A stretch of DNA of 64,000 nt from an uncultured Rickettsiales bacterium (GTDB lineage: Bacteria; Pseudomonadota; Alphaproteobacteria; Rickettsiales; RI-342): positions 382 through 64,381 of the forward strand of contig CAYSXY010000009.1 of the NCBI GenBank assembly GCA_964435165.1. Reading direction: 5' to 3'. Within the stretch, counting starts at the first letter, position 1. The number at the start of each line of letters is the position of its first letter. The notes beneath the pieces were generated by a model. It saw only the letters and a list, made by a program, of their open reading frames with translations, had not been told where the DNA came from and did no database searches. Below are positions 18,316-50,614 of this stretch, in pieces. The position numbers and the translations under genes are program-made.

Positions 18316-19617
18316 ATGAAAATTCTGTTCATCCATCCGAACATGCCGGGCCAGTTCAAACATTTGTGCCGTCATTTTGCTAAAGATCCGGCAAATCAGG
18401 TCGTTTTTTTGACGAAACCACGCCCACAAATCAACCTCAAGAATGTCCATAAGCTTGAATATGTGGTGCCGCGTGAGCCATCGGCTCACACGCACCGCTA
18501 TGTGCTCGGCTTTGAGCGCGCCGTGCTTCAGGGTCAAGAGGCTTACCGCATGTGTCGACAATTGAAGAAAGATGAAGGCTTTGTTCCGGACGTGATTGTG
18601 GCGCATCCTGGCTGGGGTGATACGTTATTTATCAAAGATGTCTATCCGGACACGCCAATACTGAGCTTTTTTGAGTTTTATTACAGCGCCTATGATGCGG
18701 ATGTGAATTTTGATCCGAATGAACCATGCAGTGAAGACGATATTGGCCGTATTCGGGTCAAAAACAGTACCAATATTTTCGCGCTTGAGCAGTCGGACTG
18801 GGGTATCAGCCCGACATTCTGGCAATATAGCCGTCATCCGGAGACCTATCGCCCGAAAATTTCCGTGATTCATGATGGGGTCGATACGGATTATTGCAAA
18901 CCGGGCGATCCGGACATGGAAATTGATTTTCGTGGCGTGAAACTCACGCCGAAGGATGAGGTAATTACCTATGTCGCGCGCAATTTTGAGCCCTATCGTG
19001 GCTTTCCCACCTTCATGCGTGCGGCGGCTGAAATCCTCAAGCGCCGTCCAAATGCACATATCGTGGCTGTCGGCGCCGATGGTGTAAGTTACGGCAAAGC
19101 GGCACCAAGCCATACAACCTACCGCAAAATGATGATGCAGGAGGTCAATTTTTGTGACCCGTCGCGCATCCATTTTTTCAACACGCAGCCTTACAATAAA
19201 CTAATGGCGCTGATTCAACTCTCCAGCGCCCATATTTACCTCACCTATCCCTTTGTATTGTCCTGGTCGATGGTCGAAGCGATGAGTTGTGGTGCGCTGG
19301 TGATTGGCTCGCGCACAGCACCGGTCGAAGAAGTGATCGATGATGGACGCAATGGTCTGCTGGTTGATTTCTTTGAGCCGAAAGAGATTGCTGACAAAGT
19401 GGATGAGATTTTTGCACATAAGGATCGCATGCAGCATCTGCGCGATGCCGCGCGCCAGACGGTGCTGGATCGTTATGCTCTGAAAACGCTGCTACCGCTC
19501 CATGCCTCGCTGGTGACGGATTTGGCCGATCGCAAAACACCGCCGCCAACAGCAGAGCGCATACGCAGCTTATATGCCCAGACCCAATCCGCTAAAGCAG
19601 AGGAGCTTGCAGCCTGA
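18316..19617 (+). CDS. GT4 family glycosyltransferase (Glyco_trans_4_3-type N-terminus)
   Basis: MKILFIHPNMPGQFKHL, HPGWGD, RNFEPYRGF, YLTYPFVLSWSMVEAMSCG. Confidence 0.9.
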   Translation: MKILFIHPNMPGQFKHLCRHFAKDPANQVVFLTKPRPQINLKNVHKLEYVVPREPSAHTHRYVLGFERAVLQGQEAYRMCRQLKKDEGFVPDVIVAHPGWGDTLFIKDVYPDTPILSFFEFYYSAYDADVNFDPNEPCSEDDIGRIRVKNSTNIFALEQSDWGISPTFWQYSRHPETYRPKISVIHDGVDTDYCKPGDPDMEIDFRGVKLTPKDEVITYVARNFEPYRGFPTFMRAAAEILKRRPNAHIVAVGADGVSYGKAAPSHTTYRKMMMQEVNFCDPSRIHFFNTQPYNKLMALIQLSSAHIYLTYPFVLSWSMVEAMSCGALVIGSRTAPVEEVIDDGRNGLLVDFFEPKEIADKVDEIFAHKDRMQHLRDAARQTVLDRYALKTLLPLHASLVTDLADRKTPPPTAERIRSLYAQTQSAKAEELAA

Positions 19618-20309
19618 TGCCTACTACCACCTCCTCATCCAGACCTGCACCTTCCCAAGGTAAAAAACGTGTGCTCTTTATTGAGCCGGGCAAGCCCGAT
19701 CCATCCAAGCTCCATCAGCTTTTTCAGGATACAGCGAAGTGGGACATCGCCTATGTTGATCGCAACACCGACCAGTTTAAACCGGATTTTATCGGCCATC
19801 TTCAGGATTTATCGGCTATCCCGGATGATTATGCCGATGCGCTCTGGTTCATCCAGAAACTGCAAACCGTTCGTCTGGAAAAACTGCCCGAGGTGCTGGC
19901 GACTTTCAAACGTATCCTCCGCCCCAATGGTCAGGTGGTGACGGTGTGCCCCGATGCATTCCTCGCTGCCGAGCATATTTATGAATATCGCATCATGGAG
20001 CCACTCAAAATCGGCGAGATTAGCCGCACGGTGCAGGATGTATTCTATGGAGCCGATGAGCCGTTCCACAATTGTTTTACGGCCGGATCACTCGGCAAAG
20101 CCTTTCTTCATGCGGGTTTTCGCAATATCCAGATTAGTCGGCAAAGCTTTAATCTGTGGATGGCTGCCACCTATGAACCTGCTTCTGTTACCAAAGATAG
20201 TGAGAAGATCCGTATTAATGACCATCATCAGGCCTATGATGGTCAAAAAGATGATTTGTCCGCCCCGCCAACACAATGGTCACCTTTAAACTTAAACCAG
20301 GCAGCGTGA
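19617..20309 (+). CDS. Class I SAM-methyltransferase-like protein, degenerate motif I
   Basis: PDFIG…DLSAIPD..AD…FKRILRPNG.V…CPD and H..CFT…L…..AGF pattern; IEPG where a GxG loop is expected. Confidence 0.6.
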   Translation: MPTTTSSSRPAPSQGKKRVLFIEPGKPDPSKLHQLFQDTAKWDIAYVDRNTDQFKPDFIGHLQDLSAIPDDYADALWFIQKLQTVRLEKLPEVLATFKRILRPNGQVVTVCPDAFLAAEHIYEYRIMEPLKIGEISRTVQDVFYGADEPFHNCFTAGSLGKAFLHAGFRNIQISRQSFNLWMAATYEPASVTKDSEKIRINDHHQAYDGQKDDLSAPPTQWSPLNLNQAA

Positions 20310-20398
20310 CGCTACATTGTCGCATCATGATGTTGTCCGGGATGACGTCTTCCATCATGGGCGCTGTGCTATGTGGTCAGATGCAGTGAGCATAATGG

Positions 20399-20413
20399 CT
20401 AAGCGAATCTTAA
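20399..20413. promoter_or_regulatory. Possible CtrA box (one mismatch) upstream of T1SS pair 1
   Basis: CTAA-gcgaatc-TTAA, 23 nt before the ATG at 20437. Confidence 0.3.
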
Positions 20414-20436
20414 ACATCGCGGATTATAGATAAGCT

Positions 20437-22152
20437 ATGTCATCGTCCCAGCCTAAAGCCCATTATCTGAACGACGTGTTCGCACGGGTCAAACGCGTGC
20501 TGCGTTTTGCTCTGTTATTCAGCCTGGCCAGCAACCTGCTGATGCTTGCCCTGCCGCTATACTCCCTGCAGGTGCTGGATCGCGTGTTATCCAGCCGTAG
20601 TTACGATACATTATTGGTCCTTAGTTTTATTGCGATATGCGCCTTTGTATTTTTTGGGTTGTTCCAGGCGGTGCGCCAGTTCATCGCCACGCGTATCGGT
20701 GAGTGGATCGACGCCAAGGTCGCGCCCGATATCTTTGAGCGCTCTATTCGCCTGGCAGCACAGCAGCAAGGAACGCAAGGCTCACAGAATATGCGTGACC
20801 TGGCTACTATTAAGGGCTTTCTCACCGGGCCGGGCTTTCAAACCGTAATGGATGCGCCCTGGGCACCGCTTTTTCTGCTGATCGTCTTCCTGATCAACCC
20901 GGTACTGGGCACTGTGACGATTGTCGGCGCTATTCTGCTGTTCTTTCTGGCTCTCATGACCGAATTTGCGACCAAGAAGGATACCATGCAGGCACAGCAG
21001 GAAAACCTGCATTGTTTGCAAATTAACGATACAGCCATTCGCAACGCCGAAGCCATTGAGGCAATGGGGATGATGCCGGGCCTGCGCAGTTCGTGGCAGA
21101 CATCAAATCAGCGCGTCAAACAATTGCAAGGCCAGGCGGCGAATCGCTATAACCTCATCACCGCCGCATCCAAAAGTCTGCGTATGCTTATTCAGATCGG
21201 CATTATGGGCGCCGGTGCCATTATGGCACTGAATAACCAACTCAGTATTGGTGGCATGATTGCCGCATCGATTCTCACCGGGCGAGCACTCGCCCCGTTT
21301 GATGCGGCCATTACCATCTGGAAGAATATTCTGGCCGCGCGCGACGCCTATCAACGGCTGAACACCTCACTATCCGCACAGACCATTCATCGGGGCACCC
21401 TTAACCTGCCAGCACCCAACGGCGCGTTAGCTGTTGAGAATGTTTTATTCCGCCCGCCTGGGCGTGATCACCTGGTGTTACGGAGTGTCAGTTTTCAACT
21501 CCATCCCGGTGATACGATGGGGCTGATCGGCGCCAGCGCCGCCGGCAAATCCACACTCGGAAAGTTGCTGGTCGGCATCTGGCCGGCCACATCCGGTCAT
21601 ATTCGTCTCGATGGGGTGGATGTCTATAAATGGAACCGCGAAGATGTCGGGCAGTATATCGGCTACCTGCCACAGGAAGTGGATTTGTTTGAAGGAACCA
21701 TCAAAGATAATATTGCCCGGATGCAGTCCGATGCGCCGATGAACAAGGTCATCGACGCGGCAAAAATGGCCCAGGTGCATGAATTCATTCTTGAATTCCC
21801 GGATGGGTATGAAACCGTGGTCGGTAGCGGCTTAGTCACCTTTTCTCCCGGGCAGAAGCAGCGCATTGCGCTGGCCCGCGCCTTATACGGCACTCCTAAA
21901 TTACTGGTGCTTGACGAGCCCAATTCCAACCTTGATGGTGATGGCGAACAGGCATTGATTCGTGCCCTGGAGGCGGCCAAAGCGCAACATATCACTACCA
22001 TCGTCATTGCGCATAAACCTTCGCTGGTCAATCATCTGGAAAAAGTGCTGGTATTGCGCGAAGGACGTGTGGAGATATTTGGGCCGCGCGATGATGTGCT
22101 CAAACGCTATGTCCGCCCGGTTCAGAATAAGGGAGGTGAACATGCCGCCTGA
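20437..22152 (+). CDS. Type I secretion ABC permease/ATPase, PrtD/AprD/RsaD family (copy 1)
   Basis: LYSLQVLDRVLSSRS.DTL, DAPWAP, Walker A GASAAGKST, GYLPQEVDLF.GT, LDEPNSNLD; signature variant FSPGQ. Confidence 0.93.
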   Translation: MSSSQPKAHYLNDVFARVKRVLRFALLFSLASNLLMLALPLYSLQVLDRVLSSRSYDTLLVLSFIAICAFVFFGLFQAVRQFIATRIGEWIDAKVAPDIFERSIRLAAQQQGTQGSQNMRDLATIKGFLTGPGFQTVMDAPWAPLFLLIVFLINPVLGTVTIVGAILLFFLALMTEFATKKDTMQAQQENLHCLQINDTAIRNAEAIEAMGMMPGLRSSWQTSNQRVKQLQGQAANRYNLITAASKSLRMLIQIGIMGAGAIMALNNQLSIGGMIAASILTGRALAPFDAAITIWKNILAARDAYQRLNTSLSAQTIHRGTLNLPAPNGALAVENVLFRPPGRDHLVLRSVSFQLHPGDTMGLIGASAAGKSTLGKLLVGIWPATSGHIRLDGVDVYKWNREDVGQYIGYLPQEVDLFEGTIKDNIARMQSDAPMNKVIDAAKMAQVHEFILEFPDGYETVVGSGLVTFSPGQKQRIALARALYGTPKLLVLDEPNSNLDGDGEQALIRALEAAKAQHITTIVIAHKPSLVNHLEKVLVLREGRVEIFGPRDDVLKRYVRPVQNKGGEHAA

Positions 22153-23548
22153 GCCCCGCCAAAAACATCAGGAGGAGTCCGCCGCCCCGGCATTTGTTCA
22201 GGGATGGCTGCAACGGCTGGATCGCTGGGCCTCGGTTATTCGTGGTTCGCAACCTATGGAAGCGGATGACCGGATCGCACGCGGACCGATTCGCTTTGGT
22301 CTCTACGCCTTCATCCTGATATTCGGCATCTTCGGCCTGTGGTCAGCGTTTGCTCCTCTGGACAGTGCGGCCATTGCCCCGGGCATCGTGGTGCTGGACT
22401 CTAACCGCAAACAGATACAGCATCTTGAGGGCGGTATTGTCGATGAGATACTGGTCACTGAAGGGCAGTTTGTCGATGCTGGCGACACATTGGTACGATT
22501 GAGTGAGACAGCAGCCAAAGCCCGGCTGGAACTGGTGAGCGGACAGCTGCATGCCGAGCGCGCCACCGCCGCACGGCTGGTAGCGGAGCGCGATGACGCA
22601 GGACGCATTGACTTTCCTCCGGATTTATTAAATTCCACTGACCCGGAATTGGCGGAAATCATTGAGAGCCAACGCCGCCTGTTCACGGTCCGGCAAGATG
22701 CGCTCAGCAGTAAAATCGGCGTTTTGAGCAAGCGCATTGAGCAATTCCGCGATGAGATTCGCGGCCTGCGCTCGCAAACCACCTCGACCGAAGACCAATT
22801 AGTACTCATCAAAGAAGAGGTGAGCGTGGTTGATAGCCTGCTCAAAAAAGGCAATGCCGTTAAACCACGCTTGCTGGCATTGCAACGTCAGCAGGCAGAG
22901 TTGGAAGGACGGCGCGGTGAATATCTGGCCATGATTGCCCGGGCCCAGCAAAGTATCACCCAAACCGATATCGAAATTCTGAATATACAGAATGAGCATC
23001 TGAAAGATCTGGTCGATCAGTTGCGTGAAACGCAAGAGCGTATCGCACAACTACAGGAGCAGCGCAATACTGCCAAAGACGTGCTGGACCGGCTGGTAGT
23101 GGTGGCACCACAAAGCGGTATTATTACCGGTATGAAAATTCATACCCAGGGCGGGGTGATTGCACCGGGTGAGACAGTGATGGAACTGGTGCCGCAAGAT
23201 GACAAGTTGATTATTGAAGCGCGTGTCTCACCACAGGATATTGATGTCGTCCATCAGGGGCTTGAAGCGCAGGTACGACTAACCGCGTTCAAAACACGTA
23301 AAATCCCTCCTGTGCGAGGTGATGTGATTTATGTCTCGGCTGATCGTTTCATCGACCCGCAAACCAATCAGGGATATTTTTTATCGCGCATTGAGATTGA
23401 TGAAGACGAACTGATGCGTCTGCAGGAAGTCGAACTCTACCCGGGCATGCCTGCCGATGTCTTAATCGTCACAGGGTCGCGTACGTTGTTGTCTTATTTG
23501 ATCGCGCCGATTACCGACAGTTTTTATCTCGCATTTCGCGAACAGTGA
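22142..23548 (+). CDS. HlyD family T1SS membrane fusion protein (copy 1)
   Basis: TM, NRKQIQHLEGGIV, coiled coil, GGVIAPGE, PGMPADVLI.TG.RT; GGAGG RBS before ATG 22142. Confidence 0.93.
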   Translation: MPPEPRQKHQEESAAPAFVQGWLQRLDRWASVIRGSQPMEADDRIARGPIRFGLYAFILIFGIFGLWSAFAPLDSAAIAPGIVVLDSNRKQIQHLEGGIVDEILVTEGQFVDAGDTLVRLSETAAKARLELVSGQLHAERATAARLVAERDDAGRIDFPPDLLNSTDPELAEIIESQRRLFTVRQDALSSKIGVLSKRIEQFRDEIRGLRSQTTSTEDQLVLIKEEVSVVDSLLKKGNAVKPRLLALQRQQAELEGRRGEYLAMIARAQQSITQTDIEILNIQNEHLKDLVDQLRETQERIAQLQEQRNTAKDVLDRLVVVAPQSGIITGMKIHTQGGVIAPGETVMELVPQDDKLIIEARVSPQDIDVVHQGLEAQVRLTAFKTRKIPPVRGDVIYVSADRFIDPQTNQGYFLSRIEIDEDELMRLQEVELYPGMPADVLIVTGSRTLLSYLIAPITDSFYLAFREQ

Positions 23549-23609: not shown

Positions 23610-25043
23610 TCAGGCACGGCCATAGGCATCTTCCAGCCTGACAATATCCTGTTCATCCAGTGCCGAGCCGCGTTGTAACTCAATGATGTGCAATTCTTCA
23701 TCTGCATCATTATAGATGCGATGCGTCGTCCCCGCCGGAATAAAGCAACTGTCTCCGGGATGTAACAGCTGTACTTCCTCACCGCGTTCCACCCGGGCCT
23801 GTCCTTTGGCGACCAGCCAATATTCACTGCGATTGCGATGATATTGACGCGAGGTACACTCGCCCGGCAGTAATACCAGTTTTTTCACCCGGTAGTCAGC
23901 GTGATAATCAAGCACACGCTGCCAGCCCCATGGCGAGGGTGGCAGTGCTTCGTCTGCTCCAGCCTGATCGTGATGACAGCGTTGCGTCATCACCTTCTGC
24001 GGGCTCTGATCTTTCGGCATCACCAGCATGCCACGTTCCGAGACAATAATGGCCAGATTATCCACGCCCTGCACCAAAACCGGCACCGTCTCGCTATGAA
24101 CATAATTGGCCGCTGCCTCATAAAAATGCGCCGTTCCATGCGCCACATTATTGTCGCTATCTTTATTCGCCATCTGATAATAGGCTTGCCACTGGCCCAT
24201 ATCCGTCCATGCAAAATGGCAAGGTAGCATGGCTCCCTTCTCCGTTTTCTCCATGATGGCTTTATCAAATGGGAGGGAAGGAATTTCAGCCCATGCTTCC
24301 GCGGCTAAATGCACATAGCGCCCTTCCGAAGTCGCCTCTGCAAGCGCCTCGCAGCACAGTCGATCGATATCCGGCGCGTAATGTTTTGCCTGCTCTATCA
24401 CCACATCACAGCGTGCAATAAAAAGGCCGCTATTCCAACAGGCGCCATCGGCAATATATTGCGCGGCATCCGCCTCATTCGGTTTTTCAATAAAATTCCG
24501 GATATGACTACCGTTACTGTTTGCGATCGGATCGCCTGGCACGATGTAACCATAATGCGTACTGGGGTGATCCGGCGCTATACCAAGCGTGGTAAGATAG
24601 CCATCGCGCGCCATGACAACCGCCTGCTCTAGCTGTTGATGAAATGATGCTGCATCGCTGATCCAGTGATCCGTCGGGCATATGGCCATGATGGCTGCCT
24701 CACCATAGCCGGCCGCCAGATAATGAGCGGCTGCAATGATTGAGGCCGCGGTGTTGCGCGACGCCGGTTCCATGACGCAGTGCCATCCTGGTGCATCATT
24801 TGACAATTGCAACTGCACATAGTGTTGATAGCGCTGGTGCGTCATCACCAATAATGTTTCATGCCCCTGCCATAGCTGAGCAGCACGTTGAAATAAGGAC
24901 GGCGCGGATGACGCATCTGTCTCCGCGTTTGATAAATGATGTACGGGCAAAAATTGTTTGGGACGCTTTGGTACAGAATGCGGCCAGAGTCGCGTTCCGC
25001 TTCCACCGGCGAGTAATACGGGGATAAGCGGGCTATCAGTCAT
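23610..25043 (-). CDS. manC: Mannose-1-phosphate guanylyltransferase / mannose-6-phosphate isomerase
   Basis: LAGGSGTRLWP.S…PKQF, EP.SRNTA, FIEKP, WNSG, C-terminal cupin (QYH..RSEYW) and DIVRLED.YGR. Confidence 0.92.
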   Translation of the reverse strand: MTDSPLIPVLLAGGSGTRLWPHSVPKRPKQFLPVHHLSNAETDASSAPSLFQRAAQLWQGHETLLVMTHQRYQHYVQLQLSNDAPGWHCVMEPASRNTAASIIAAAHYLAAGYGEAAIMAICPTDHWISDAASFHQQLEQAVVMARDGYLTTLGIAPDHPSTHYGYIVPGDPIANSNGSHIRNFIEKPNEADAAQYIADGACWNSGLFIARCDVVIEQAKHYAPDIDRLCCEALAEATSEGRYVHLAAEAWAEIPSLPFDKAIMEKTEKGAMLPCHFAWTDMGQWQAYYQMANKDSDNNVAHGTAHFYEAAANYVHSETVPVLVQGVDNLAIIVSERGMLVMPKDQSPQKVMTQRCHHDQAGADEALPPSPWGWQRVLDYHADYRVKKLVLLPGECTSRQYHRNRSEYWLVAKGQARVERGEEVQLLHPGDSCFIPAGTTHRIYNDADEELHIIELQRGSALDEQDIVRLEDAYGRA

Positions 25044-25046: not shown

Positions 25047-25784
25047 TCACACCATGAATTTATCATCATCCTGCAGCACCATCGCCGGCTCCTGCATTGG
25101 CCTGACCGATTGTTGTCGTGCCATCATCGATAAATAAGGCCAACGCCCTTCTGCTAATTCACTGGTGGTAATCAGCGTCATTTCTTTGCCTTGGAGAAAC
25201 GCCGCCCACCGGTTGAATGGTACATCTCGTATTGCATCAAAGGTAAGAATATGGCCTGCCGGGATATTAGGCACGCCATGTGATTTGGGAGTCAAACAGC
25301 CCTCCTTCTCCAACACTTCCATCGCGTTGTGATAAGCTGTTGTTTTTTCCGTCAAGCTGGACAGTGCCTTGCCCAAATCCCTTACATGGTCAGCTAAATC
25401 GCCTTTCTCGTTCCAAAGCGGCAATGATGCATGGTCAGCGGTGAGTAAGCGGCTATGCTGATCTATGCATAGTACCTGCTGCGTTGCATCTATTTTCAGT
25501 AAGATGAATGGGTAGGCTTTCACAGCCGCCGGAATATACAGCCCCCGCCAGGCGCCTTTATCATCGACCAGATTATTCTTTACTCCGTCAGAAGAAAAAA
25601 TAGCGATAGGCATTATGCCGGAGGTATTCTTGACAAATAACACCGGGTATTCCTGCGCCGCCTGATAAAGTTCCGTCCAGAATAATGGAGCCCATAACAG
25701 ATGACTGGCAAAGCCATATCCTTCTTTTTTCTTCAACCCCAGATGGGCATGTGCCTCACGGCTAAGCGGCGTATACTGGTACAT
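25047..25784 (-). CDS. SapC family protein (copy 1)
   Basis: PL….H..L…..YGFA…..PL…E….A.EYPVLF…N.LVD..G.W…YIPA….YPF pattern; ATG 25784 preferred over 25850. Confidence 0.75.
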   Translation of the reverse strand: MYQYTPLSREAHAHLGLKKKEGYGFASHLLWAPLFWTELYQAAQEYPVLFVKNTSGIMPIAIFSSDGVKNNLVDDKGAWRGLYIPAAVKAYPFILLKIDATQQVLCIDQHSRLLTADHASLPLWNEKGDLADHVRDLGKALSSLTEKTTAYHNAMEVLEKEGCLTPKSHGVPNIPAGHILTFDAIRDVPFNRWAAFLQGKEMTLITTSELAEGRWPYLSMMARQQSVRPMQEPAMVLQDDDKFMV

Positions 25785-25955
25785 AAAGGCTGTATAATGG
25801 TCTTGTTTAGAATCAAATGAACAGGCATTGTATAACGTCGCAACACGCATGGGTGAGACGACTAACCGTTACTTTATATTAAGTATGCCTTTTCTTCCAG
25901 CAGCAACCTCACTATATTAGGGATGTTTTATCATCGATGTATGAGTCATATTCTT

Positions 25956-27053
25956 ATGCGAAGTTTTCTACCGCACGCGCTTGATCTTAATAATAAGCAT
26001 ATTCTGGTCACCGGAGGCACGGGCACCTTCGGCCAGGCGTTCGTCAAAAATGTGCTAAGCGATTACGCACCGGCCCGCCTGATCATTTATTCGCGTGATG
26101 AACTCAAGCAGTTCGATATGCAGCAGTCGCTTAAATCCTATCCGCATTATGACAGCTTGCGTTTTTTCATCGGTGATGTGCGTGACCGCGACCGCTTGAC
26201 CCTCGCCATGCGCGGCATTGATTATGTGATTCACGCAGCGGCCCTTAAACAAATCCCGGCTGCCGAATACAACCCGATGGAATGTTTGCGCACCAATGTG
26301 AACGGGGCAGAGAACATCGTGCGGGCGGCACTGGATAATCAGGTGAAGAAAGTGGTGGCGCTTTCCACGGACAAGGCGGCCAGTCCACTGAATCTGTACG
26401 GAGCCAGTAAATTGGCATCCGATAAGATTTTCGTCGCGGCCAACCATTTGAGCGGCAGCATCGGCACACGCTTTTCGGTCGTGCGTTATGGCAATGTGGT
26501 TGGTTCACGCGGCAGTGTGATTCCGTTTTTTCTCAAGCTAATGGCCGAAGATGCAGACCACCTGCCCATCACCGACAACCGTATGACACGTTTTTGGATC
26601 ACCCTGAAGCAGGGCGTGGCGTTCGTGCTGTCTTCGCTGGAGATGATGCGTGGCGGCGAGGTGTTTGTGCCGAAAATTCCCAGCATGCGCATTAACGATC
26701 TGGCGAGTATGATGGCACCTGATCTGCCTCAGCGTGTCGTCGGCATTCGCCCCGGCGAGAAATTGCATGAAATTATGATTACAGAAGATGATGCACGTTC
26801 GACCATTGAGTTGGATGATCGTTACATTATTGAACCGGCCTTCGCCTTCTGGCAGCGCGCTCCTTACCGCTCGGTCGAACCCGTGCCGGTGCCGGAGGAA
26901 GGCTTCAGCTATGCCAGTCACACTAACACCGAATGGCTGGATCATGCCGGTATGCGCCAGTTGCTGCTGGACTCGGATATTGTTCTACCCGGCTCTCATC
27001 ATACATCCCAAGCCTCATCCAAGAGCGCGGCAGCACCGCAGAAAGTTGCCTGA
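25956..27053 (+). CDS. pseB: UDP-N-acetylglucosamine 4,6-dehydratase (inverting), PseB/FlmA
   Basis: TGGTGTFG, YSRDELKQ, AALKQIPAAEYNP, STDKA, YGASK, RYGNVVGSRGSVIP, GIRPGEKLHE. Confidence 0.93.
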   Translation: MRSFLPHALDLNNKHILVTGGTGTFGQAFVKNVLSDYAPARLIIYSRDELKQFDMQQSLKSYPHYDSLRFFIGDVRDRDRLTLAMRGIDYVIHAAALKQIPAAEYNPMECLRTNVNGAENIVRAALDNQVKKVVALSTDKAASPLNLYGASKLASDKIFVAANHLSGSIGTRFSVVRYGNVVGSRGSVIPFFLKLMAEDADHLPITDNRMTRFWITLKQGVAFVLSSLEMMRGGEVFVPKIPSMRINDLASMMAPDLPQRVVGIRPGEKLHEIMITEDDARSTIELDDRYIIEPAFAFWQRAPYRSVEPVPVPEEGFSYASHTNTEWLDHAGMRQLLLDSDIVLPGSHHTSQASSKSAAAPQKVA

Positions 27054-28288
27054 TGCTGCCTTATGGCCGTCAGCTGATTGAAGAGGACGATATAGACGCT
27101 GTTGTTGAAGCGTTACGCAGTCCTTTCTTAACGACCGGGCCTGCGGTTGCCGCTTTCGAAGACGCATTGGCGGATGCGGTAGATGCTCCTTATGCCGTCG
27201 CCTGTTCCAGCGGCACGGCGGCCCTACACCTTGCCTGCATGGCGGTGGAACTTGGCACAGGCGATGCCGCCATTGTGCCTAGCATGACCTTTCTGGCCAC
27301 GGCCAATGCCGTGCGCTTTTGTGGGGCCGAAGTAGTGTTTGCTGATGTGTGCCCGCAGACCGGGCTAATGACCCCGGAGACATTGGAAGCCGCCCTTAAA
27401 CAGGCAAAACATCAAGGGTTACATGTAAAGGCTGCTTTCCCGGTTCATTTGAACGGACAGACGGCAGACTTGCCTGCTATTGGCGCTGTGGCTGCAAAAA
27501 ATGGACTGACACTCATTGAAGATGGGTGCCATGCGCTGGGCACGCAATATCATAATGGAACGAATGCGATGAGATCAGTTGGGGACTCTCGCATCAGCCA
27601 GATGACCTCCTTTTCGTTTCATCCGGTCAAAACCATCGCGATGGGTGAAGGTGGCGCCGTCACTACGCGCGATGCAGCCCTGGCAGAGCGCATGCGTCGT
27701 TTGCGTAATCATGGGATGGTGCGTACGGACGATCCAGCCTCTCTCTCCAGGCCGGACTATGGCACCGACGGGCAAGGGCATGTGATGCCTTGGTATTATG
27801 AAATGCCGGAGGTCGGGTATAATTACCGGGCCAGCGATATTCATTGTGCGCTGGGTCTGTCTCAATTACGTAAGCTTGCGCGTTTCAAACGCATCCGCCG
27901 AGCGCTGAAAGCACAGTATGATACGCTGCTCGCGCCGCTGGCGCCTGCGATTATTCCGGTTCCTCACCTGCCTTATTCGGAAGCGACCTACCATCTGTGT
28001 GCGGTGCATGTGGACTGGCAAGCGTTGGGAATGGAGCGCAGTGCCATGATGCAGCAGTTAATAGCAGCGGGCATCGGCACGCAGGTCCATTATATTCCGG
28101 TTCATCAACAACCTTATTATCGTGCCCGCTATGGCTCTTTGTCGCTGCCCGGGGCCGATGCCTACTACCACTCTATCCTCAGCCTTCCGCTGCATGTGGG
28201 CATGCAAGAGGAGGATGTCGCCCGGGTGGTCCATCAGCTAACTCAAATGCTCAAGCACGCCGATACCGCCGCGCTTGCCAGCGCCTGA
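27053..28288 (+). CDS. pseC: UDP-4-amino-4,6-dideoxy-N-acetyl-L-altrosamine transaminase, PseC/FlmB
   Basis: MLPYGRQ…FLTTGP, SSGTAALHLA, FSFHPVK PLP lysine, GEGG, GIGTQVHYIP; TGATG overlap with pseB. Confidence 0.9.
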   Translation: MLPYGRQLIEEDDIDAVVEALRSPFLTTGPAVAAFEDALADAVDAPYAVACSSGTAALHLACMAVELGTGDAAIVPSMTFLATANAVRFCGAEVVFADVCPQTGLMTPETLEAALKQAKHQGLHVKAAFPVHLNGQTADLPAIGAVAAKNGLTLIEDGCHALGTQYHNGTNAMRSVGDSRISQMTSFSFHPVKTIAMGEGGAVTTRDAALAERMRRLRNHGMVRTDDPASLSRPDYGTDGQGHVMPWYYEMPEVGYNYRASDIHCALGLSQLRKLARFKRIRRALKAQYDTLLAPLAPAIIPVPHLPYSEATYHLCAVHVDWQALGMERSAMMQQLIAAGIGTQVHYIPVHQQPYYRARYGSLSLPGADAYYHSILSLPLHVGMQEEDVARVVHQLTQMLKHADTAALASA

Positions 28289-40305: not shown

Positions 40306-42333
40306 TTACGCAGCCAGTGGCTGCTTTTCCTCCAGATATTCTTCGAGCGCCAGACGCTCGGCCTCGTGTTGTTTCTCGAGCTCCTGCACACGTTGCTCTA
40401 CTGTCTCGGCATATTCAGTATCCGGCTCGTAGGCTTCTAAATCATCTAACAATGCATGCAGATCGTCTCGCAACTGATCCAGTTTGGCATGGAATTCTTC
40501 GCGAAAGATATGAGCCACTGCCTGCTTTTCATCCTCCGTATAGGCCCGGTTCATCATGAACTCAATGAAATAGGCCATGCCGACAATACTGCCGCGCAAC
40601 ATCATTTGCACCGGATGGCAAGCCTTGCCAAATGACATCAATTTCATCAATGGAACGACATAGTCTTTACGAATCAGTGTTTCTTCTGTGCTGGTAATGC
40701 GCTTTATCGAATCGAGAAACTTGTCACCCTGCATGCGAAATTTTGTTGCATCAAAGCGTGTTTTTGCCTGTTGGGCTGTATAATCATTAAAATGCTCGCG
40801 CACTTCGGCAAGCGCCTCATCCTTGTTCCATCCATGATCAATCGTGACCGTCTCCGGCAGTTTGGGGATAAAACCGTCAATAAAGGCTCCGTCACTACAG
40901 TTAAAATAATGCGGGTTTTTATGATTGTGGTTGATATGCGCCATGGCATATTGCGTCCAGGAAAATACCGGGGTCGAATGACAGGTGCCACCAAAATTAC
41001 CAGGCAATTGCACCGTGTATTTCACTTCTTTTTTGAATTTATCGTCGCGGTAATAGACGGTTTGTTTGGCGTGATGCACTTCCGGATCCATCGAGCCGCA
41101 ATCCACCCCAAAAAGATAGAGATTGGTGAATCCATAATGCATGGCAAAGGCCACCGCCGTATTTGTCACCGTCGGATCGCACCCGTTCAACACATCATTA
41201 CGGCCATGGGCAAACGCAATGTAGGTGTTCAAGCCCGGACGGAAGAAATAAATTCCTTCCTTAAAGAGGTCCATCAAACCGGGATAGGATGTGGCACTGG
41301 CCACCAGCGGCACATCGTGCAATGCATACGTGCTGACCAGCTTCTGATAGACATCAATCAATTCCTTACCGCGTTCCAGCAGCACCACGAAATCCGGTTT
41401 AATGCCGTTCGCCATTAACGGTTCCGCCGCCGTTCCTGCGGCGAGAATAATCGCCTTATCCTGATATTGCTTTATGGTTGGCAACGCCCGGTCGAGTGAC
41501 GGGCCAGACCCCACCACAAAGACGGGAAAATGGCGCGGCTTCGGGCTATAATTGACGGTTTTCGCATCACCGCGAATCAGGTTGGTATAGGTATTACGCA
41601 GATGTTCGACTTCATCGTCGAAAAATCCAACGCCTGCTATCATCGACGAGAAATCACGGCATAATTTAGACCATAGCTGGCTATAGGCTTCGCTGGCAAT
41701 GTCGAAATAGCATATCGCCTTATCGATGGAAACCAGGCTCATTTTCCATATTTTTTCGCGCATTGAAGAGAATAGCAACGTCTCATCATTGGCGATAATG
41801 ATTGAAATGGCGCCGCCGCGCGATTCCACTTCCTCGAACAATTCCTGCCAGTCAATGAGCTGGCTGGCATGGAACAGAAAATCCGGATTATTCTCCATGA
41901 TCAGCATGTGGCGACACCGGCTTTCCTGCGCCAGTGGCATCAAATGGTAACCACTGCCGATACCAAAGACGGCAACGATGTAGGCATCATTATTGCCGGA
42001 CACGGATTCCTGAGTTTTATTCTCAAAATGATCGCTGATGCGCTTGGATGATCGCTTGTAAAACTGCGAGCAGACCCTGTCCCCGACCAGATCTCGCATG
42101 ATGGTCAGGCGTTTTTGATTCTGCCAGTAATAGGCTAGACGCTCCTCATTATACTGCGCCGCCCCACCGCGATAGAGCCATTTGCCTTCGCGTTCGCGGA
42201 TATTGACATGCCCCGCCGGGTCAATGCCCACCTGACTGAGAGGGCGTGATGCCACAAGCTGCTGATAAATCGACGGGTGATGTTCTTCGAAATAAGCCAG
42301 ATTCTTATCGAATAATTCCTGATTATGCATCAT
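40306..42333 (-). CDS. Motility-accessory-factor (Maf/DUF115) nonulosonate glycosyltransferase
   Basis: LF.KNL.YF, FGIGSGYHL, GFFDDE, VGSGPSLD, GIKPDF…LER, PTVTN.A, YLFGVD.G, HH…TVY, NCSDGA.I.G. Confidence 0.88.
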   Translation of the reverse strand: MMHNQELFDKNLAYFEEHHPSIYQQLVASRPLSQVGIDPAGHVNIREREGKWLYRGGAAQYNEERLAYYWQNQKRLTIMRDLVGDRVCSQFYKRSSKRISDHFENKTQESVSGNNDAYIVAVFGIGSGYHLMPLAQESRCRHMLIMENNPDFLFHASQLIDWQELFEEVESRGGAISIIIANDETLLFSSMREKIWKMSLVSIDKAICYFDIASEAYSQLWSKLCRDFSSMIAGVGFFDDEVEHLRNTYTNLIRGDAKTVNYSPKPRHFPVFVVGSGPSLDRALPTIKQYQDKAIILAAGTAAEPLMANGIKPDFVVLLERGKELIDVYQKLVSTYALHDVPLVASATSYPGLMDLFKEGIYFFRPGLNTYIAFAHGRNDVLNGCDPTVTNTAVAFAMHYGFTNLYLFGVDCGSMDPEVHHAKQTVYYRDDKFKKEVKYTVQLPGNFGGTCHSTPVFSWTQYAMAHINHNHKNPHYFNCSDGAFIDGFIPKLPETVTIDHGWNKDEALAEVREHFNDYTAQQAKTRFDATKFRMQGDKFLDSIKRITSTEETLIRKDYVVPLMKLMSFGKACHPVQMMLRGSIVGMAYFIEFMMNRAYTEDEKQAVAHIFREEFHAKLDQLRDDLHALLDDLEAYEPDTEYAETVEQRVQELEKQHEAERLALEEYLEEKQPLAA

Positions 42334-42410: not shown

Positions 42411-44360
42411 TCACGCTACTTTAACATCTTCACATAAATTGTAGCGCTGAAGCATACCCATGACGCGGCCCAAATCAAAATCTTGTTCCGGCGCAGGACA
42501 GTCGAGCGCGGCATAAAATGGCTCAAGTGCGCTCCCAGGATCTTCCAACAGCAATCTGCCATCAATCTCAACCGCACGCGCGCCCACATGTTGCTTCAGA
42601 CGCTTGAATGCCTGCTTATTGAGGTTGATCATCGAGGTCAGCGCGTTTTCATCCGTCGCATAATCCATCCATTGTGCATAGCGATGATAGTCAGCATAAC
42701 GATGTCGCCGGGCAAGCACGGCATCATCTATGGTGATGTATACAAACAGCGCGTCCGGGAACAGGGTATCCAGCAAGAACCCATGCAAAAAGTTATCCCA
42801 TGACACATCAAGCATCGCTTCCGGCAACTCAGTGGTTCGATATCTAAACGACGTATAAAACCAGGAATGGCGAATCATCCGTGCGGTTGTCGCATCCAGC
42901 TCAGCAAGGCATTGCGGGTAGGAGTGCGGACTTTTTAACGCCTTGGGAATGCGGTGGACACATTCATTGGCCAAATTACTCGCGCCGTCACTCTTGATGC
43001 GCTCATCCTGAAGCAATAATTGCTCTAAATAATCGCTACCGGCCTGGGGCAATGACATGACAAACGCTCGCCGTATATGTGACTTATATTCATCTGCCTC
43101 TACCGCAAGCGGGGCGTCAAGATGCTTAGTGATATATTCGCAATGTTGAACAATGCGATTAGGTGCATAGACCTGTTTCTGCCGTGCAATGGTTTTATAT
43201 GATGATAGCAGTGCGGCCCGATCTTCAAAACCAATACGCAGCAAGTACCGCGCGGCCAGCATACGGGCCCGAACCGGCGAACATGGATCGTCAGTCAACT
43301 GCCGCAGTATCGCTTTATCGGCCTGCTCTATCCCCAGGGCTGCGGCAAGCACATAGGCCATGGCCGAATAGTCAGAGCATTGACGAATAATATCGGATGC
43401 CTCCTCATCACGCGCCTGAGATAATAAAAACCATATTAATTGCTCTGACGTTTCTAACTGCTGCGGGTGAAGACAGAGCACATTGCGCAAATCTGATTCA
43501 TACCAGACCTTATCTTTCTTATGCTGTTGAATAACGGCACGCGCCAGCAGCATGTATGGAGAATGCGGCGTAAATTTAGCCGTATCATCATAGATTTTCT
43601 GTGCTTCTACCAATTTGCCGGATTGCAACAGACGATTCACACCGAGATAAGTATGCAATTCCTTATTTTGGGCTGTCGGTTGCGCGATATCGAGAAAATA
43701 GTCTTCTAAAAATGCGCATTGCCTCGTGTCTATGGCATGCTGCACCAATGACCACATGTGGGACGGCAGCAATCTGTTTGGAGCGGCGGAAATAATCTCC
43801 CTAAGGTGTGATTGGCTTCGCTGCCTAACTGCCAGATATATCAACTGATAAATAATCGTCGTAGGCATGTTGGCCAATGTCGCCACATCCAGCGATTGCC
43901 ATAACCCTTCGGCAGTTTCATCCACGGCACTGATTTGATCATAGAGCAACTGTGACTGTGATATCGATATGTTGCGATCATCTTCATGCATCCGATCCTT
44001 GATATCAAAACGCTGCATTTGCACAGCAAGTGCCACCTCCATAGAATCCGGCAAACGCTGCATAGTGTCTATTTTGGCCAGTTGCTCGCGTACCGTTTCG
44101 GTAAAGGGCAGTGTATCCAACAATGCACACACCGTTCCAGTGTCGGTATCGGAAATAGACGAGCTATTGTTGATTAACGCACGCAGTAAGTGTTCATAGC
44201 TCAGAGTGTCATGCACCAATGCACCTGTATCTATCGCCATCAGGCCGGATGAAATATCCGGCTCGTTTATTATCTGCTCTTTCAGTTCTTTATGAAAGGC
44301 GCGGTAATTCCCGCCCTTGATGAGACTGACGATTTCTTGTTGAGAGGATGGTTGCTGCAT
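42411..44360 (-). CDS. Helical-repeat (TPR-like) protein with C-terminal sulfotransferase-like domain, degenerate
   Basis: FVMSLPQAGSDYLEQLL in place of FIVG.PRSGTTL.EQ.L; also …N.LH..LL..LFPDA.FV, YA.D…L and L.EDP…L segments. Confidence 0.55.
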   Translation of the reverse strand: MQQPSSQQEIVSLIKGGNYRAFHKELKEQIINEPDISSGLMAIDTGALVHDTLSYEHLLRALINNSSSISDTDTGTVCALLDTLPFTETVREQLAKIDTMQRLPDSMEVALAVQMQRFDIKDRMHEDDRNISISQSQLLYDQISAVDETAEGLWQSLDVATLANMPTTIIYQLIYLAVRQRSQSHLREIISAAPNRLLPSHMWSLVQHAIDTRQCAFLEDYFLDIAQPTAQNKELHTYLGVNRLLQSGKLVEAQKIYDDTAKFTPHSPYMLLARAVIQQHKKDKVWYESDLRNVLCLHPQQLETSEQLIWFLLSQARDEEASDIIRQCSDYSAMAYVLAAALGIEQADKAILRQLTDDPCSPVRARMLAARYLLRIGFEDRAALLSSYKTIARQKQVYAPNRIVQHCEYITKHLDAPLAVEADEYKSHIRRAFVMSLPQAGSDYLEQLLLQDERIKSDGASNLANECVHRIPKALKSPHSYPQCLAELDATTARMIRHSWFYTSFRYRTTELPEAMLDVSWDNFLHGFLLDTLFPDALFVYITIDDAVLARRHRYADYHRYAQWMDYATDENALTSMINLNKQAFKRLKQHVGARAVEIDGRLLLEDPGSALEPFYAALDCPAPEQDFDLGRVMGMLQRYNLCEDVKVA

Positions 44361-44411: not shown

Positions 44412-44450
44412 AAAAAGAGGGGCTGCGCAAGCGCAGCCCCTCTCGTTTTT
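44412..44450. terminator. Strong intrinsic terminator after the RTX/S-layer-like gene
   Basis: Perfect inverted repeat AGAGGGGCTGCGC (44416-44428)/GCGCAGCCCCTCT (44431-44443) with A and T runs on the flanks. Confidence 0.88.
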
Positions 44451-48486: not shown

Positions 48487-48501
48487 TTAACATAACGTTA
48501 A
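48487..48501. promoter_or_regulatory. CtrA-type box
   Basis: Perfect TTAA-cataacg-TTAA about 170 nt upstream of the RTX gene start. Confidence 0.5.
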
Positions 48502-48507
48502 AAAACC

Positions 48508-49815
48508 TTACTTGCTCGCGGTGCAGCATTCTATGCCCGGCTTGATGGAAAAATCAACCATGCCGACGATCGGGACGTCATTATCCTTCGCGATGACCTC
48601 TATAGAGCAGGCGTCAACAATGCGGTGCAAAAAGCGATAACCTTCGCTGTCATGCGCACTGACACCCGCATTGACAAAATACTGCCCCGGCGCCAATGCG
48701 CAGGCAAACTCAAACCGCACGTCATAGCTCGTCCCTTCTTCGCATGCCGAGCCCAAGGCGGAGTGACTTCGCAAAATAGTGCCCCCGAGTTCCGTTCCGC
48801 CTTTGCTTTTAATGAGCATGCCGAATCCCGCATCTGCCACCTGTTGCGAAAACGTCACTCTGTAGCTGAAAAGATAACGCCGCCCCGTGTGCAGCAAACG
48901 CGCAACCTCGCCGTTTAGTTCTGTCACGCGAGCATTGGTGATGATTGCCCCTTCCGCATCATAGGCGATTGCATTGCCCCCCAGTCCGGTCATTCCATTT
49001 AGTTCATGACCCGACGCATCTTCGCCCCGCTTAATGGCCGCAAGCACGCGCTTTCGCTGCGATGGCTCGCAATGTAGTAGTCGCTGATATTGCGCCAGCA
49101 CCTGATTGGGCGCGCCGTCCATTAACAACTCCCCCATATCGAGCAGCAGGGCGCGATTGCACAGCTCCATCACCGCCTGGGCAGAGTGCGACACAAATAA
49201 TATGGTCGCCCCCTTATCGCGCATGTCACGAATACGCGCAAAGCAACGGCTTTGAAAGGCGGCATCCCCCACAGCCAGCGCCTCGTCGACAACAAATATA
49301 TCGGGCTGCACGGCCACGGCCACGGCAAAAGCCAGACGGACGACCATGCCGCTGGAATAGGTGTTGAGCGGTTGCTCCATAAATTCACCAATGCCGCTAA
49401 AGCGCACAATGCCCTCGAACGCTGCATCAATCTCGTCGCGCGACATGCCGAGCACGGTACCATAGAGCACAACATTCTCACGGCCGGTAAAATCAGGATT
49501 GAAGCCGGCCCCCAGTTCCAGCAGCGCAGAGATCCGCCCACTGGTATGAACAGTGCCGTGGCTGGGAGACAAGGTTCCGCAAATCATTTGCAGCAGCGTT
49601 GATTTGCCGGAACCGTTACGACCGACAATGCCAATGATTTCACCACGTGCCACGTCAAAACTGACGTCAATGACTGCCCTATATTCCGTATAAAGCGTGC
49701 GGTAGCGGCGTAGAAAAAACTGCCAGAGGCGATCCTGCGGTCGACGATAGAGGAGGTAGTCCTTGCCTATCCCCTTTACCGTCATGATCGCTTTATCCTG
49801 TTGGTCATAGGACAT
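48508..49815 (-). CDS. wzt: Polysaccharide ABC exporter ATPase Wzt with C-terminal carbohydrate-binding domain
   Basis: GRNGSGKST, ALLELGAGFNP.FTGREN, YSSGM..RLAFAVA, VDEALAVGD; Wzt_C-like beta domain. ATG 49815 preferred. Confidence 0.92.
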   Translation of the reverse strand: MSYDQQDKAIMTVKGIGKDYLLYRRPQDRLWQFFLRRYRTLYTEYRAVIDVSFDVARGEIIGIVGRNGSGKSTLLQMICGTLSPSHGTVHTSGRISALLELGAGFNPDFTGRENVVLYGTVLGMSRDEIDAAFEGIVRFSGIGEFMEQPLNTYSSGMVVRLAFAVAVAVQPDIFVVDEALAVGDAAFQSRCFARIRDMRDKGATILFVSHSAQAVMELCNRALLLDMGELLMDGAPNQVLAQYQRLLHCEPSQRKRVLAAIKRGEDASGHELNGMTGLGGNAIAYDAEGAIITNARVTELNGEVARLLHTGRRYLFSYRVTFSQQVADAGFGMLIKSKGGTELGGTILRSHSALGSACEEGTSYDVRFEFACALAPGQYFVNAGVSAHDSEGYRFLHRIVDACSIEVIAKDNDVPIVGMVDFSIKPGIECCTASK

Positions 49816-50614
49816 CAGCAAACCCCTTGCGCACCCGGCCAAACCACCAAAATGCCGCCAGCACAGCCATGACAGCCCCCGCACCATGTATGATTAACCA
49901 GTGTATCGGTGGGATCGCATGATGGAATAACGCATATCGCACTGTTTCGATCATGGGCGTGAGCGGGTTGAGCATCATCACATCACGCCACCCTTCCGGC
50001 ACGACGCTTAAAGGATAGAAGACAGGACTTAAAAACAACAGCGCCGTCGTTAATAATGCCGTAATCTGCCCGATATCGCGAAGATAGACGCCGAGCGATC
50101 CAAGTAACCACGCTGCCGCCGCCCCATAGCACATATAAATGACCAACAGTATCGGCAACCAGAGAACTGCCAGCGGCACAACCCCTTTGACGATAACCAT
50201 CGCAGCCAGCAGAATGGCAAATCCTATCACGCAGTGAAACAAGGCCGAGATGACCGGTACAAGCGGCAGCAACTCCAGCGGAAATACAACCTTCTTCACC
50301 AGATTGGGCTGTGCCAGCACCGAAGATGGGGTGCGCGTGAGTATTTCCGCCATCATCCCATGCACCAACAGGCCGCTAAACAGAATCATGGCAAAATGGA
50401 GCGTGCCTGCCCCCTCTGCATCATCTGTCATGGGAAATCGCACGGGAAAGATAATGCCAAACACAAGTCCGTAAATGATTAAGAGAAGTATCGGCGTTGC
50501 CAAGGCCCACCCCATCCCCAGCATACTCCCACGATATCTCCCCGTAATATCGCGTCGTACCAATTGCCAAAGCAGAGCGCGATGAGTCATCAATAAGGTT
50601 AGAAGTCGGCGCAT
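49805..50614 (-). CDS. wzm: Polysaccharide ABC exporter permease Wzm
   Basis: RRD…RYRGS.LG..W, NLVKKVVFP, YLRD, SPVFYP, LNP, GFADVL C-terminus. Confidence 0.93.
   Translation of the reverse strand: MRRLLTLLMTHRALLWQLVRRDITGRYRGSMLGMGWALATPILLLIIYGLVFGIIFPVRFPMTDDAEGAGTLHFAMILFSGLLVHGMMAEILTRTPSSVLAQPNLVKKVVFPLELLPLVPVISALFHCVIGFAILLAAMVIVKGVVPLAVLWLPILLVIYMCYGAAAAWLLGSLGVYLRDIGQITALLTTALLFLSPVFYPLSVVPEGWRDVMMLNPLTPMIETVRYALFHHAIPPIHWLIIHGAGAVMAVLAAFWWFGRVRKGFADVL

Follow-up and report, generated by a model that had tools for sequence, protein, structure and literature searches.

We examined a 64-kb stretch of DNA from an uncultured Rickettsiales bacterium (the window, along whose full length all positions are numbered), which lies on contig C9 of the window genome, G000, and carries genes for a repeats-in-toxin (RTX) protein, two pairs of type I secretion system (T1SS) components, a Maf glycosyltransferase, two SapC family proteins and a nonulosonate sugar pathway (Table 1). 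Open reading frames (ORFs) were assigned by Pfam and NCBIfam profile scans against family and equivalog cut-offs. Every gene listed in a preliminary description of this DNA was found in its place, and 0 of the 47 scanned window ORFs match a flagellar family, in agreement with the earlier statement that the window holds no flagellar gene. One gene had been missed: between the RTX and maf genes, at 42411–44360, lies a reading frame for a 649-aa protein that joins tetratricopeptide repeats (TPR) to a sulfotransferase-like region. Judged by sequence comparison, the core of the locus is a rare but recurring module of an RTX protein, a PrtD/HlyD-type T1SS, this TPR pseudo-sulfotransferase, a Maf from a distinct clade, a pseudaminic acid (Pse) pathway with formyl and amino tailoring, and SapC.

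The same kinds of parts lie together in G384, a genome from another alphaproteobacterial family and the sole genome of its order in our collection. The G384 cluster spans 36.5 kb on two contigs joined via a split maf gene. It opens with a GT2-SBP fusion, a methyltransferase, an ORF, a GT4 glycosyltransferase, a DUF4214 protein and an RTX/Calx-beta protein (1,096 aa, 21% Ser plus Thr), followed by an ATP-binding cassette permease/ATPase (ABC), a membrane-fusion protein (MFP), a 688-aa sulfotransferase-like protein and Maf. Beyond Maf come PseB, PseC, PseF, a PseG-like protein, formyltransferase N and C, PIG-L, NeuB and a methyltransferase, and the cluster ends with SapC, an unknown ORF and a second pair of ABC and MFP. 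Except for that unknown ORF, the genes from RTX to the end share one strand, and the GT4 gene lies on the opposite strand. The SapC inside the cluster is the only one in that genome. Proteins shared with the window are 26–69% identical (PseB 69%, PseC 50%, PseF 38%, NeuB 33%), and neither a flagellin gene nor Wzm/Wzt was found in the 36.5 kb. The gene of the 494-aa DUF4214 protein (L072 8602–10086) immediately precedes that of the RTX/Calx-beta protein, and its product may be another protein that the module secretes.

The distribution of Maf loci indicates how uncommon this arrangement is. Maf occurs in 25 of 401 sampled genomes of the class, the window genome included. We surveyed 20 of the 32 non-self places in class genomes (with flanks of about 9 kb), 80 metagenome loci and 80 species-representative loci, scoring them with profiles and with queries from the window genome; the flagellin profile was built from six flagellins. 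Flagellin was found within 10 kb at 12/20, 41/80 and 44/80 of these loci, respectively (97/180 in all), and a PrtD-type ABC together with RTX at 1/20, 0/80 and 0/80, the single case (1/180) being G384. None of the 160 loci from the two contig collections contains a T1SS ABC, an MFP, an RTX protein or SapC, and the Maf locus of a further class genome, G577, has an adaptor gene only. Maf and SapC occur together in seven other genomes but lie no more than 15 kb apart in G384 alone. Because SapC and Maf are linked in G384 alone, and T1SS ABC plus RTX accompany Maf at one locus in 180, the linkage does not look like chance. The preliminary description had made its proposal depend on whether other genomes keep this linkage. 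One from another family does, with RTX, two PrtD-type T1SS pairs, Maf, Pse genes, SapC and GT4 in one cluster, so that the linkage, although rare, is conserved. Neither chance nor the recent transfer of a block readily explains why some dozen kinds of parts, at low identity, are grouped around sister Mafs in genomes as distant as these two. This co-location points to a single working system in which Pse glycosylation and type I secretion are coupled.

Maf from the window scores above the cut-offs for both PF20157 (139.8 bits) and PF01973 (120 bits) and is present once in the genome, within the island. No match was found in 200 other sampled genomes of the order, and those in 24 of 400 other sampled genomes of the class are at most 32% identical; identity is about 30% both to Rhodospirillales Mafs and to the Maf of G384. 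Among 5.8 billion clustered proteins the best match, P0003, is 39% identical and lies on a 4.4-kb contig. In trees built on the 329 columns common with the N-terminal part of the G384 protein, the window and G384 Mafs are sisters, with a FastTree support of 0.993 among 104 sequences and an IQ-TREE (LG+G4) ultrafast bootstrap of 100 among 50 sequences, namely the two Mafs and 48 drawn at random from the 78 left after removing pairs more than 80% identical. In a 141-taxon tree with 37 database proteins added, P0003 joins the window Maf (0.97) and the trio with G384 has a support of 0.989. These three proteins thus appear to form a small distinct clade. A scan of genome contigs with a clade-specific profile matched 241 stretches, 0 of which were relatives. 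Elsewhere in the class, some genomes have Maf open frames of 1,000–1,219 aa, which suggests fusions with extra domains, and in G577 a 1,084-aa Maf adjoins a lone HlyD-type adaptor gene.

The gene beside maf that the preliminary description had missed encodes a protein that matches a profile of 23 canonical relatives at E 1.5e-21. It is also homologous (E 1e-8) to the 688-aa G384 ORF in the same position, and no other homologue was found at E ≤ 1e-5 among 8,000 word-sharing candidates scored from the 5.8-billion-protein set. All 23 canonical relatives carry a loop PR[SA]G[ST][ST] and a DK motif, which we take to be the elements of sulfotransferases that bind 3′-phosphoadenosine 5′-phosphosulfate (PAPS) and act in catalysis. 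The window protein has PQAGSD at the loop and DV at the DK motif; the G384 protein has PESG followed by a deletion, and DA. In both, the profile match ends at position 555 of 689. With the PAPS loop and the DK motif replaced or deleted, the two Maf-linked proteins appear to have kept the sulfotransferase fold and lost PAPS binding. Between the two motifs the canonical family has a conserved stretch, LPK..g....YPe.la.ld, which is kept in both degenerate proteins and may be the acceptor-binding part. The canonical TPR-sulfotransferase family itself, with matches in 30 of 401 class genomes (29 besides the window genome), was considered as a marker of the module and rejected: 0 of 20 loci taken from the 29 other genomes lie near a T1SS, RTX, Maf, SapC or flagellin gene, and the family is unrelated to the module.

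Comparison with relatives divides the locus into an older flank and a younger block. Orthologues of the first T1SS pair (ABC1 and MFP1) are present in all four other genomes of the family at 48–56% identity (ABC1 50–56%, MFP1 48–53%), and in one of these, G001, a 16-kb stretch holds GlnD, ABC1, MFP1, GT4, DHODH, PilT and PilU, somewhat rearranged and with GlnD directly adjoining ABC1, leaving no room for the block. The closest proteins to ABC2 and MFP2 in the four relatives are only 36–41% identical; none of the four has a Maf, and each has at most one SapC, of the housekeeping type that the window genome encodes on contig C14. Since ABC1, MFP1 and GT4 are kept in the relatives, and Maf and proteins of the ABC2/MFP2 type are absent there, the roughly 28 kb from ManC to EamA (23610–51552) were acquired next to an ancestral T1SS. 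The preliminary description had drawn a single 32-kb island; its genes are all present, but 18316–23548 is ancestral to the family and falls outside the acquired block. GlnD follows the EamA gene, at 51845. Three start codons are probably misplaced in the ORFs as called: those of MFP1 and PseC should lie downstream of 21962 and 26933, respectively, and that of the HAD phosphatase near residue 100, given the overlap with the NeuB gene.

Table 1. Features of the locus, with positions in the 64-kb window.
Feature	Position	Strand	Evidence and remarks
GT4 glycosyltransferase	18316–19617	+	Pfam Glyco_trans_4_3, Glycos_transf_1; ancestral flank; orthologues (53–57% identity) beside T1SS pair 1 in G001 and G004
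Methyltransferase-like ORF, weak match	19617–20309	+	Methyltransf_23/11 under cut-offs; ancestral flank; weak homologues beside T1SS pair 1 in G004 and G002
T1SS ABC permease/ATPase 1, PrtD type, 571 aa	20437–22152	+	TIGR01842 675 bits (cut-off 510); no C39 domain; ancestral
T1SS membrane-fusion protein 1	21962–23548	+	TIGR01843 417.5 bits (cut-off 208.65), match from residue 110; ancestral
ManC (GDP-mannose pyrophosphorylase/PMI)	23610–25043	−	TIGR01479 374.4 bits (cut-off 372.95) and Pfam; first gene of the acquired block
SapC family protein 1	25047–25850	−	PF07277 E 6e-34; island-specific paralogue
PseB, inverting UDP-GlcNAc 4,6-dehydratase	25923–27053	+	TIGR03589 523 bits (cut-off 408)
PseC aminotransferase	26933–28288	+	TIGR03588 470.5 bits (cut-off 423.5), match from residue 41
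T1SS membrane-fusion protein 2	28355–29971	−	TIGR01843 406 bits (cut-off 208.65); island-specific
T1SS ABC permease/ATPase 2, PrtD type, 584 aa	29913–31667	−	TIGR01842 651 bits (cut-off 510); no C39 domain; island-specific
240-aa ORF	31767–32489	−	No Pfam match
HAD phosphatase	32480–33433	−	Pfam HAD_2, residues 113–289; ORF overlaps NeuB gene
NeuB/PseI-type nonulosonate synthase	33090–34157	−	PF03102 E 8e-78
Formyltransferase (tailoring)	34177–34827	−	Pfam Formyl_trans_N
PseF, CMP-pseudaminic acid synthetase	34882–35574	+	TIGR03584 291 bits (cut-off 205.7)
Tailoring genes: second DegT aminotransferase, GNAT, GFO/IDH/MocA oxidoreductase, 372-aa ORF	35571–39532	+	Pfam; 372-aa ORF without match
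SapC family protein 2	39540–40301	−	PF07277 E 9e-40; 253-aa product, ORF residues 31–283
Maf glycosyltransferase	40306–42333	−	Pfam Maf_flag10_N, MptE-like; Maf_C under cut-off
TPR and degenerate sulfotransferase-fold protein, 649 aa	42411–44360	−	Sulfotransfer_3 29.2 bits (cut-off 27); TPR_15 under cut-off
Intrinsic terminator	44415–44444	−	13-bp stem with 9 GC pairs, then T run; directly 3′ of RTX stop
RTX protein, 1,283 aa	44466–48317	−	PF00353 286 bits, 14 HemolysinCabind stretches
Wzt, O-polysaccharide ABC ATPase	48508–49887	−	PF00005 ABC_tran and PF14524 Wzt_C (carbohydrate-binding)
Wzm, ABC-2 permease	49805–50614	−	PF01061 ABC2_membrane
EamA-type transporter	50614–51552	−	Pfam EamA; last gene of the acquired block

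Beyond these features, type IV pilus genes flank the region (1399–4940 and 15545–18227), among them genes for a 779-aa PilB-like ATPase with an MshEN domain, PilC, and PilT and PilU paralogues; the same flank has three ORFs without a Pfam match (5278–8726) and a small cyclic-nucleotide-binding protein. Downstream of GlnD, among housekeeping genes, lies an ORF for a 184-aa HNH endonuclease (56277–56831).

The secretion genes of the block resemble those of G384 more than those of the host family. ABC2 is 45% identical to both ABCs of the G384 cluster (44.5% to the second) and only 36–40% identical to ABC1 and the ABCs of the relatives, and MFP2 is 40% identical to the Maf-linked MFP of G384. The T1SS of the module, ABC2/MFP2, is thus island-specific. 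No TolC-like channel was found among the scanned window ORFs; the rest of the genome was not searched for one.

Composition and repeats make the RTX protein a candidate T1SS cargo and surface protein, acidic, rich in Ser and Thr and free of Cys (Ser plus Thr 20.8%, Asp 11.3%, Lys plus Arg 1.2%, 0 Cys), in which a regular expression finds 23 repeat-like motifs. The C-termini, where a signal for export by the neighbouring T1SS would lie, look alike in this protein and its G384 counterpart (DIFFFAS and DISFLASA), a likeness in appearance only. In the preliminary description the protein was called S-layer-like and was said to show signs of high expression. Its composition, with few basic residues, fits a surface-layer (S-layer) protein, but the comparison does not support the idea. 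Similarity in the PDB is limited to the repeat blocks, with adjoining sequence, of known RTX proteins (toxins, proteases, lipases, epimerases and an adhesin). As for expression, the terminator and a 190-nt spacer upstream of the gene are present, but codon bias is ordinary. The window genome has at least ten further RTX-repeat loci, on contigs C3, C17, C22, C30, C35, C38, C39, C41, C47 and C66, and a third T1SS pair on C2, which is a lot for a 2.3-Mb genome.

The sugar made by the island is apparently a Pse derivative, because PseB, PseC and PseF all exceed their NCBIfam equivalog cut-offs. The synthase clearly belongs to the NeuB family (PF03102) but stays under the cut-offs for both PseI (243 versus 340 bits) and NeuB (267 versus 400 bits), and is apparently a divergent NeuB/PseI; it is the only NeuB-type synthase in the window genome. 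With regard to the PseH acetyltransferase, a GNAT protein is present that has no NCBIfam match. No PseG-like match was found, and the 372-aa ORF is not similar to the PseG-like ORF of G384. A polysaccharide-type Pse-transferase was likewise not found, which leaves Maf as the only candidate transferase in the block.

SapC2 begins 4 nt past the Maf stop codon. Its AlphaFold2 model is confident (predicted local distance difference test score 92.7) and shows alpha/beta structure in the N-terminal part and then a long helix at the C-terminus. Foldseek found no solved structure similar to it at E ≤ 0.001 (best E 0.72), the best VIA-align hit has a Z of 2.5, and a sequence search of the PDB with SapC gave no match. 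The idea that SapC might be an enzyme of the cupin type was accordingly dropped, since a confident model matches no solved fold and the PDB sequence search is blank. SapC proteins occur in 86 of 401 sampled class genomes, mostly in single copy; the third SapC of the window genome, on C14, and its orthologues in the relatives do not lie beside a T1SS. Of the coupling role that the preliminary description gave to SapC, what stands is its presence in both clusters, the sole evidence for it, while SapC genes elsewhere are not linked to T1SS. A predicted Maf–SapC2 complex scored 0.01 in a run without controls, which is no evidence for or against contact.

The host is flagellated. Its assembly (2.32 Mb in 111 contigs, 97.8% complete) encodes a 553-aa flagellin with a large central domain on C17, with FliD, FliS and FliK adjoining, a second flagellin-family ORF on C15 and FlhA on C12, so that Maf, on C9, is not linked to flagellin. 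The C17 locus (L069 1884–19394) reads FliK, a TPR-GT41 protein, a methyltransferase, a PhyH-type oxygenase, an ORF, a DegT aminotransferase, FliS, FliD, a 138-aa ORF and flagellin. Its TPR-GT41 protein, the only GT41 protein of the genome, has 663 aa, with TPR at residues 41–205 and GT41 at 458–627, and its gene sits between fliK and fliS-fliD-flagellin. In Caulobacter the flagellin pseudaminyltransferase FlmG is reported to bind flagellin through an N-terminal TPR region and to have a C-terminal GT-B domain (PMC7591256). The C17 protein shares with FlmG an N-terminal TPR region, a C-terminal GT-B (GT41) domain and a place among flagellar genes, a likeness of architecture; its database relatives are named O-GlcNAc transferase-like, and its gene lies on a contig other than that of the island. 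The GT41 profile also matches the Caulobacter control genome. The flagellin locus has a candidate transferase of its own, with FlmG-like architecture. The preliminary description had called for a search of the genome for flagellins and for further maf or flmG genes: flagellins do exist, elsewhere, Maf is single, and a TPR-GT41 gene is present at the flagellin locus.

Upstream of the C17 flagellin gene, about 150 nt before its start codon, inspection by eye found a good GGCAC-N5-TTGC site of the sigma-54 type. The window has 38 loose matches to such a promoter versus 49 expected, none of them upstream of the RTX or Maf units, and the comparison does not discriminate between the readings. The same flagellin upstream region holds several copies of a short GC-rich palindromic repeat, and directly upstream of the C17 flagellin locus lies the gene of a 1,004-aa RTX protein.

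The simplest and most likely mechanism that these observations suggest is one in which the pathway would make a CMP-activated Pse derivative in the cytoplasm, and Maf would place it on Ser and Thr residues of the still-unfolded RTX protein. The modified cargo would leave through the island T1SS and fold with calcium at the surface. The same pool of CMP-sugar would probably also supply the FlmG-like TPR-GT41 protein at the flagellin locus. Passage of a glycosylated cargo through a T1SS would be physically comparable to that of glycosylated flagellin, which passes a narrow export channel. Maf enzymes need a module that recognizes the acceptor, either a TPR domain or a cis-encoded adaptor; in the Shewanella proteins treated in the source, Maf-1 uses a TPR domain of its own and Maf-2 depends on the cis-encoded adaptor GlfM (bioRxiv 10.1101/2023.12.03.569772). 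Between the genes neighbouring the window maf there is no room for a GlfM-sized ORF; what maf has in cis is the TPR pseudo-enzyme on one side and SapC2 on the other. Recognition of the acceptor might here fall to the degenerate sulfotransferase-like TPR protein, perhaps together with SapC, as it falls to the Maf-1 TPR domain or to GlfM for flagellin. Glycosylated RTX surface proteins are known, SwmA and oscillin being examples (PMC3034196).

That the RTX cargo is pseudaminylated by Maf before T1SS export is, on these gene comparisons, a tentative proposal that we regard as quite possible. We hold with somewhat more reserve the fuller statement that this Maf clade has departed from flagellin and now, with the help of SapC and the TPR pseudo-enzyme, attaches Pse to an RTX surface protein that is still in the cytoplasm, ahead of its export by the T1SS. 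Gene content and order, recurrence in a second genome, the Maf clade, the motif loss and the acquisition of the block are shown by the comparisons; the acceptor, the roles as adaptors, the choice of T1SS for the cargo and the formation of any S-layer are inferred. For the redirection of Maf to a T1SS cargo, as first proposed in the preliminary description, recurrence of the linkage in G384 makes the idea plausible, but both genomes have flagellins and one Maf each.

Several points weigh against glycosylation of the RTX protein. Only two genomic instances are at hand, with one protein (P0003) that has no context. Both carriers are flagellated, the window genome with flagellin, FliD, FliS, FliK and FlhA and G384 with five flagellin genes, and in each the only Maf and the only NeuB-type synthase belong to this locus, so that flagellin could be the acceptor or one among several. 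The window Maf is a canonical full-length member of its family, whose sole NCBIfam match, far under cut-off, is to the PseD flagellin-modification domain, and the characterized Mafs in the portion of the literature covered act on flagellin. Both Maf branches are long, which leaves room for long-branch attraction and may affect the sister grouping. A division of labour between transferases for flagellin and for RTX is not supported in G384 by the neighbours of its GT41 genes: by tblastn with proteins of the window genome, a low-sensitivity test, its two GT41-like genes have no flagellar neighbours. The RTX gene shows no sign of high expression in its codons, with an effective number of codons of 46.7, at the 29th percentile of 951 ORFs of at least 300 aa. 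Finally, RTX, T1SS and glycosylation genes often cluster in variable surface islands, and one RTX locus of the window genome adjoins flagellin.

Flagellin remains a live candidate acceptor of Maf, because the genome is flagellated and its only Maf and only NeuB lie in the island. On this alternative, Maf modifies only the flagellin encoded on another contig, the glycosylation genes merely travel with T1SS and RTX, and any action of the TPR pseudo-enzyme and SapC with Maf would be that of specificity factors for flagellin. The genome does encode a full-length flagellin, whose large central domain has been noted, and flagellar export genes; the window Maf aligns end to end with the Maf of PDB entry 5MU5 (chain A, E 1.5e-79, residues 4–643 against 8–658); and, with many of the 180 surveyed loci lacking a nearby flagellin gene, the distance from flagellin is not unusual. 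G384, too, has its five flagellins. Such a reading leaves unexplained that a sister Maf in G384 is surrounded by the same dozen types of parts at 26–69% identity, two T1SS pairs, RTX and the only SapC of that genome among them, when none of the 160 Maf loci in the two contig collections has any of the T1SS, RTX or SapC genes. Moreover, the flagellin locus already has its TPR-GT41 transferase. We therefore consider flagellin as the only target rather unlikely, and less so than the alternatives that follow.

Another possibility is that the Pse derivative enters an O-antigen or capsule through Wzm/Wzt and that an unglycosylated RTX surface or S-layer protein binds this polysaccharide, with Maf acting on flagellin or some other acceptor. 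Pse does occur in lipopolysaccharides and capsules, Caulobacter RsaA is anchored on O-antigen, and the block or its flank carries Wzm, Wzt with its Wzt_C domain, ManC and GT4. The only transferase candidate in the block is nevertheless Maf, no Pse-transferase of the polysaccharide type having been found, and the single GT4 is ancestral. The 36.5 kb of the G384 cluster yielded no Wzm/Wzt, which therefore fall outside the conserved core, and the export of an anchoring polysaccharide by Wzm/Wzt, as put forward in the preliminary description, is unsupported. We judge this alternative improbable.

Least probable of all, and in our view very much so, is that the sulfotransferase-like protein, using an unusual donor, is enzymatically active and adds sulfate or some other modification to the RTX cargo or to the glycan on it, in the manner of the Xanthomonas rax system, where a neighbouring sulfotransferase sulfates a T1SS-exported peptide: its Sulfotransfer_3 score is just over the cut-off and it sits between cargo gene and Maf in both genomes, but the PAPS-binding residues of all canonical relatives are replaced or deleted in both proteins and the profile match is truncated.

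Glycosylation of the RTX cargo by Maf, the reading we prefer, would combine features of several known systems. Like flagellin-modifying Mafs, the window Maf is a three-domain protein with N-terminal and MptE-like domains that matches 5MU5 over its full length, and it is encoded beside a cytoplasmic CMP-Pse pathway and a cis-encoded candidate specificity factor. Unlike them, it has no flagellin in its 64-kb window; its neighbours are RTX, T1SS, SapC and the TPR pseudo-sulfotransferase, and it falls in a separate clade with the sole other Maf in such a context. As in the S-layer systems of Caulobacter (RsaA/RsaDE) and Campylobacter fetus (SapA/SapCDEF), the gene of a large, acidic and Cys-free RTX protein is accompanied by those of a PrtD-type ABC, an HlyD adaptor and a SapC family protein, with O-polysaccharide export genes adjoining. 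The window differs from these in its added Maf and Pse pathway; to our knowledge, S-layer proteins of the RsaA/SapA type are not known to be glycosylated. More generally, and again as far as we know, T1SS cargo is regarded as unmodified apart from the acylation of toxins. For other surface proteins, soluble transferases that modify the unfolded protein before export are established, as with HMW1C acting on HMW1 and the heptosyltransferases of AIDA-I and TibA; the logic would be the same here, whereas the transferase families, the sugars and the secretion routes (type V) differ. The cyanobacterial proteins SwmA and oscillin are, like the window protein, large RTX-type surface proteins, but their sugar has been seen and that of the window protein is only predicted; conversely, the covered sections of the source name no machinery for their glycosylation (PMC3034196), while the window has candidate machinery beside the cargo. 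Literature searches on Maf, RTX, T1SS or S-layer glycosylation, supplementary files aside, turned up no account of such a system.

If the proposal is correct, the RTX protein would be the first non-flagellin substrate of a Maf, and the locus the first defined glycosylation machinery for a T1SS cargo. Glycosylation of the RTX cargo would widen the substrate range of a major family of bacterial O-glycosylation enzymes, give genetic access to the question of how sugars might be added to glycosylated RTX surface proteins like those of marine cyanobacteria, and offer a compact, soluble system by which secreted proteins could be given sialic-acid-like sugars. In the degenerate sulfotransferase-fold protein the module has a testable candidate for an acceptor adaptor of a new type. 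Should flagellin turn out to be the target after all, it would still be new that a distinct Maf clade is paired, in a conserved way, with SapC and a pseudo-enzyme.

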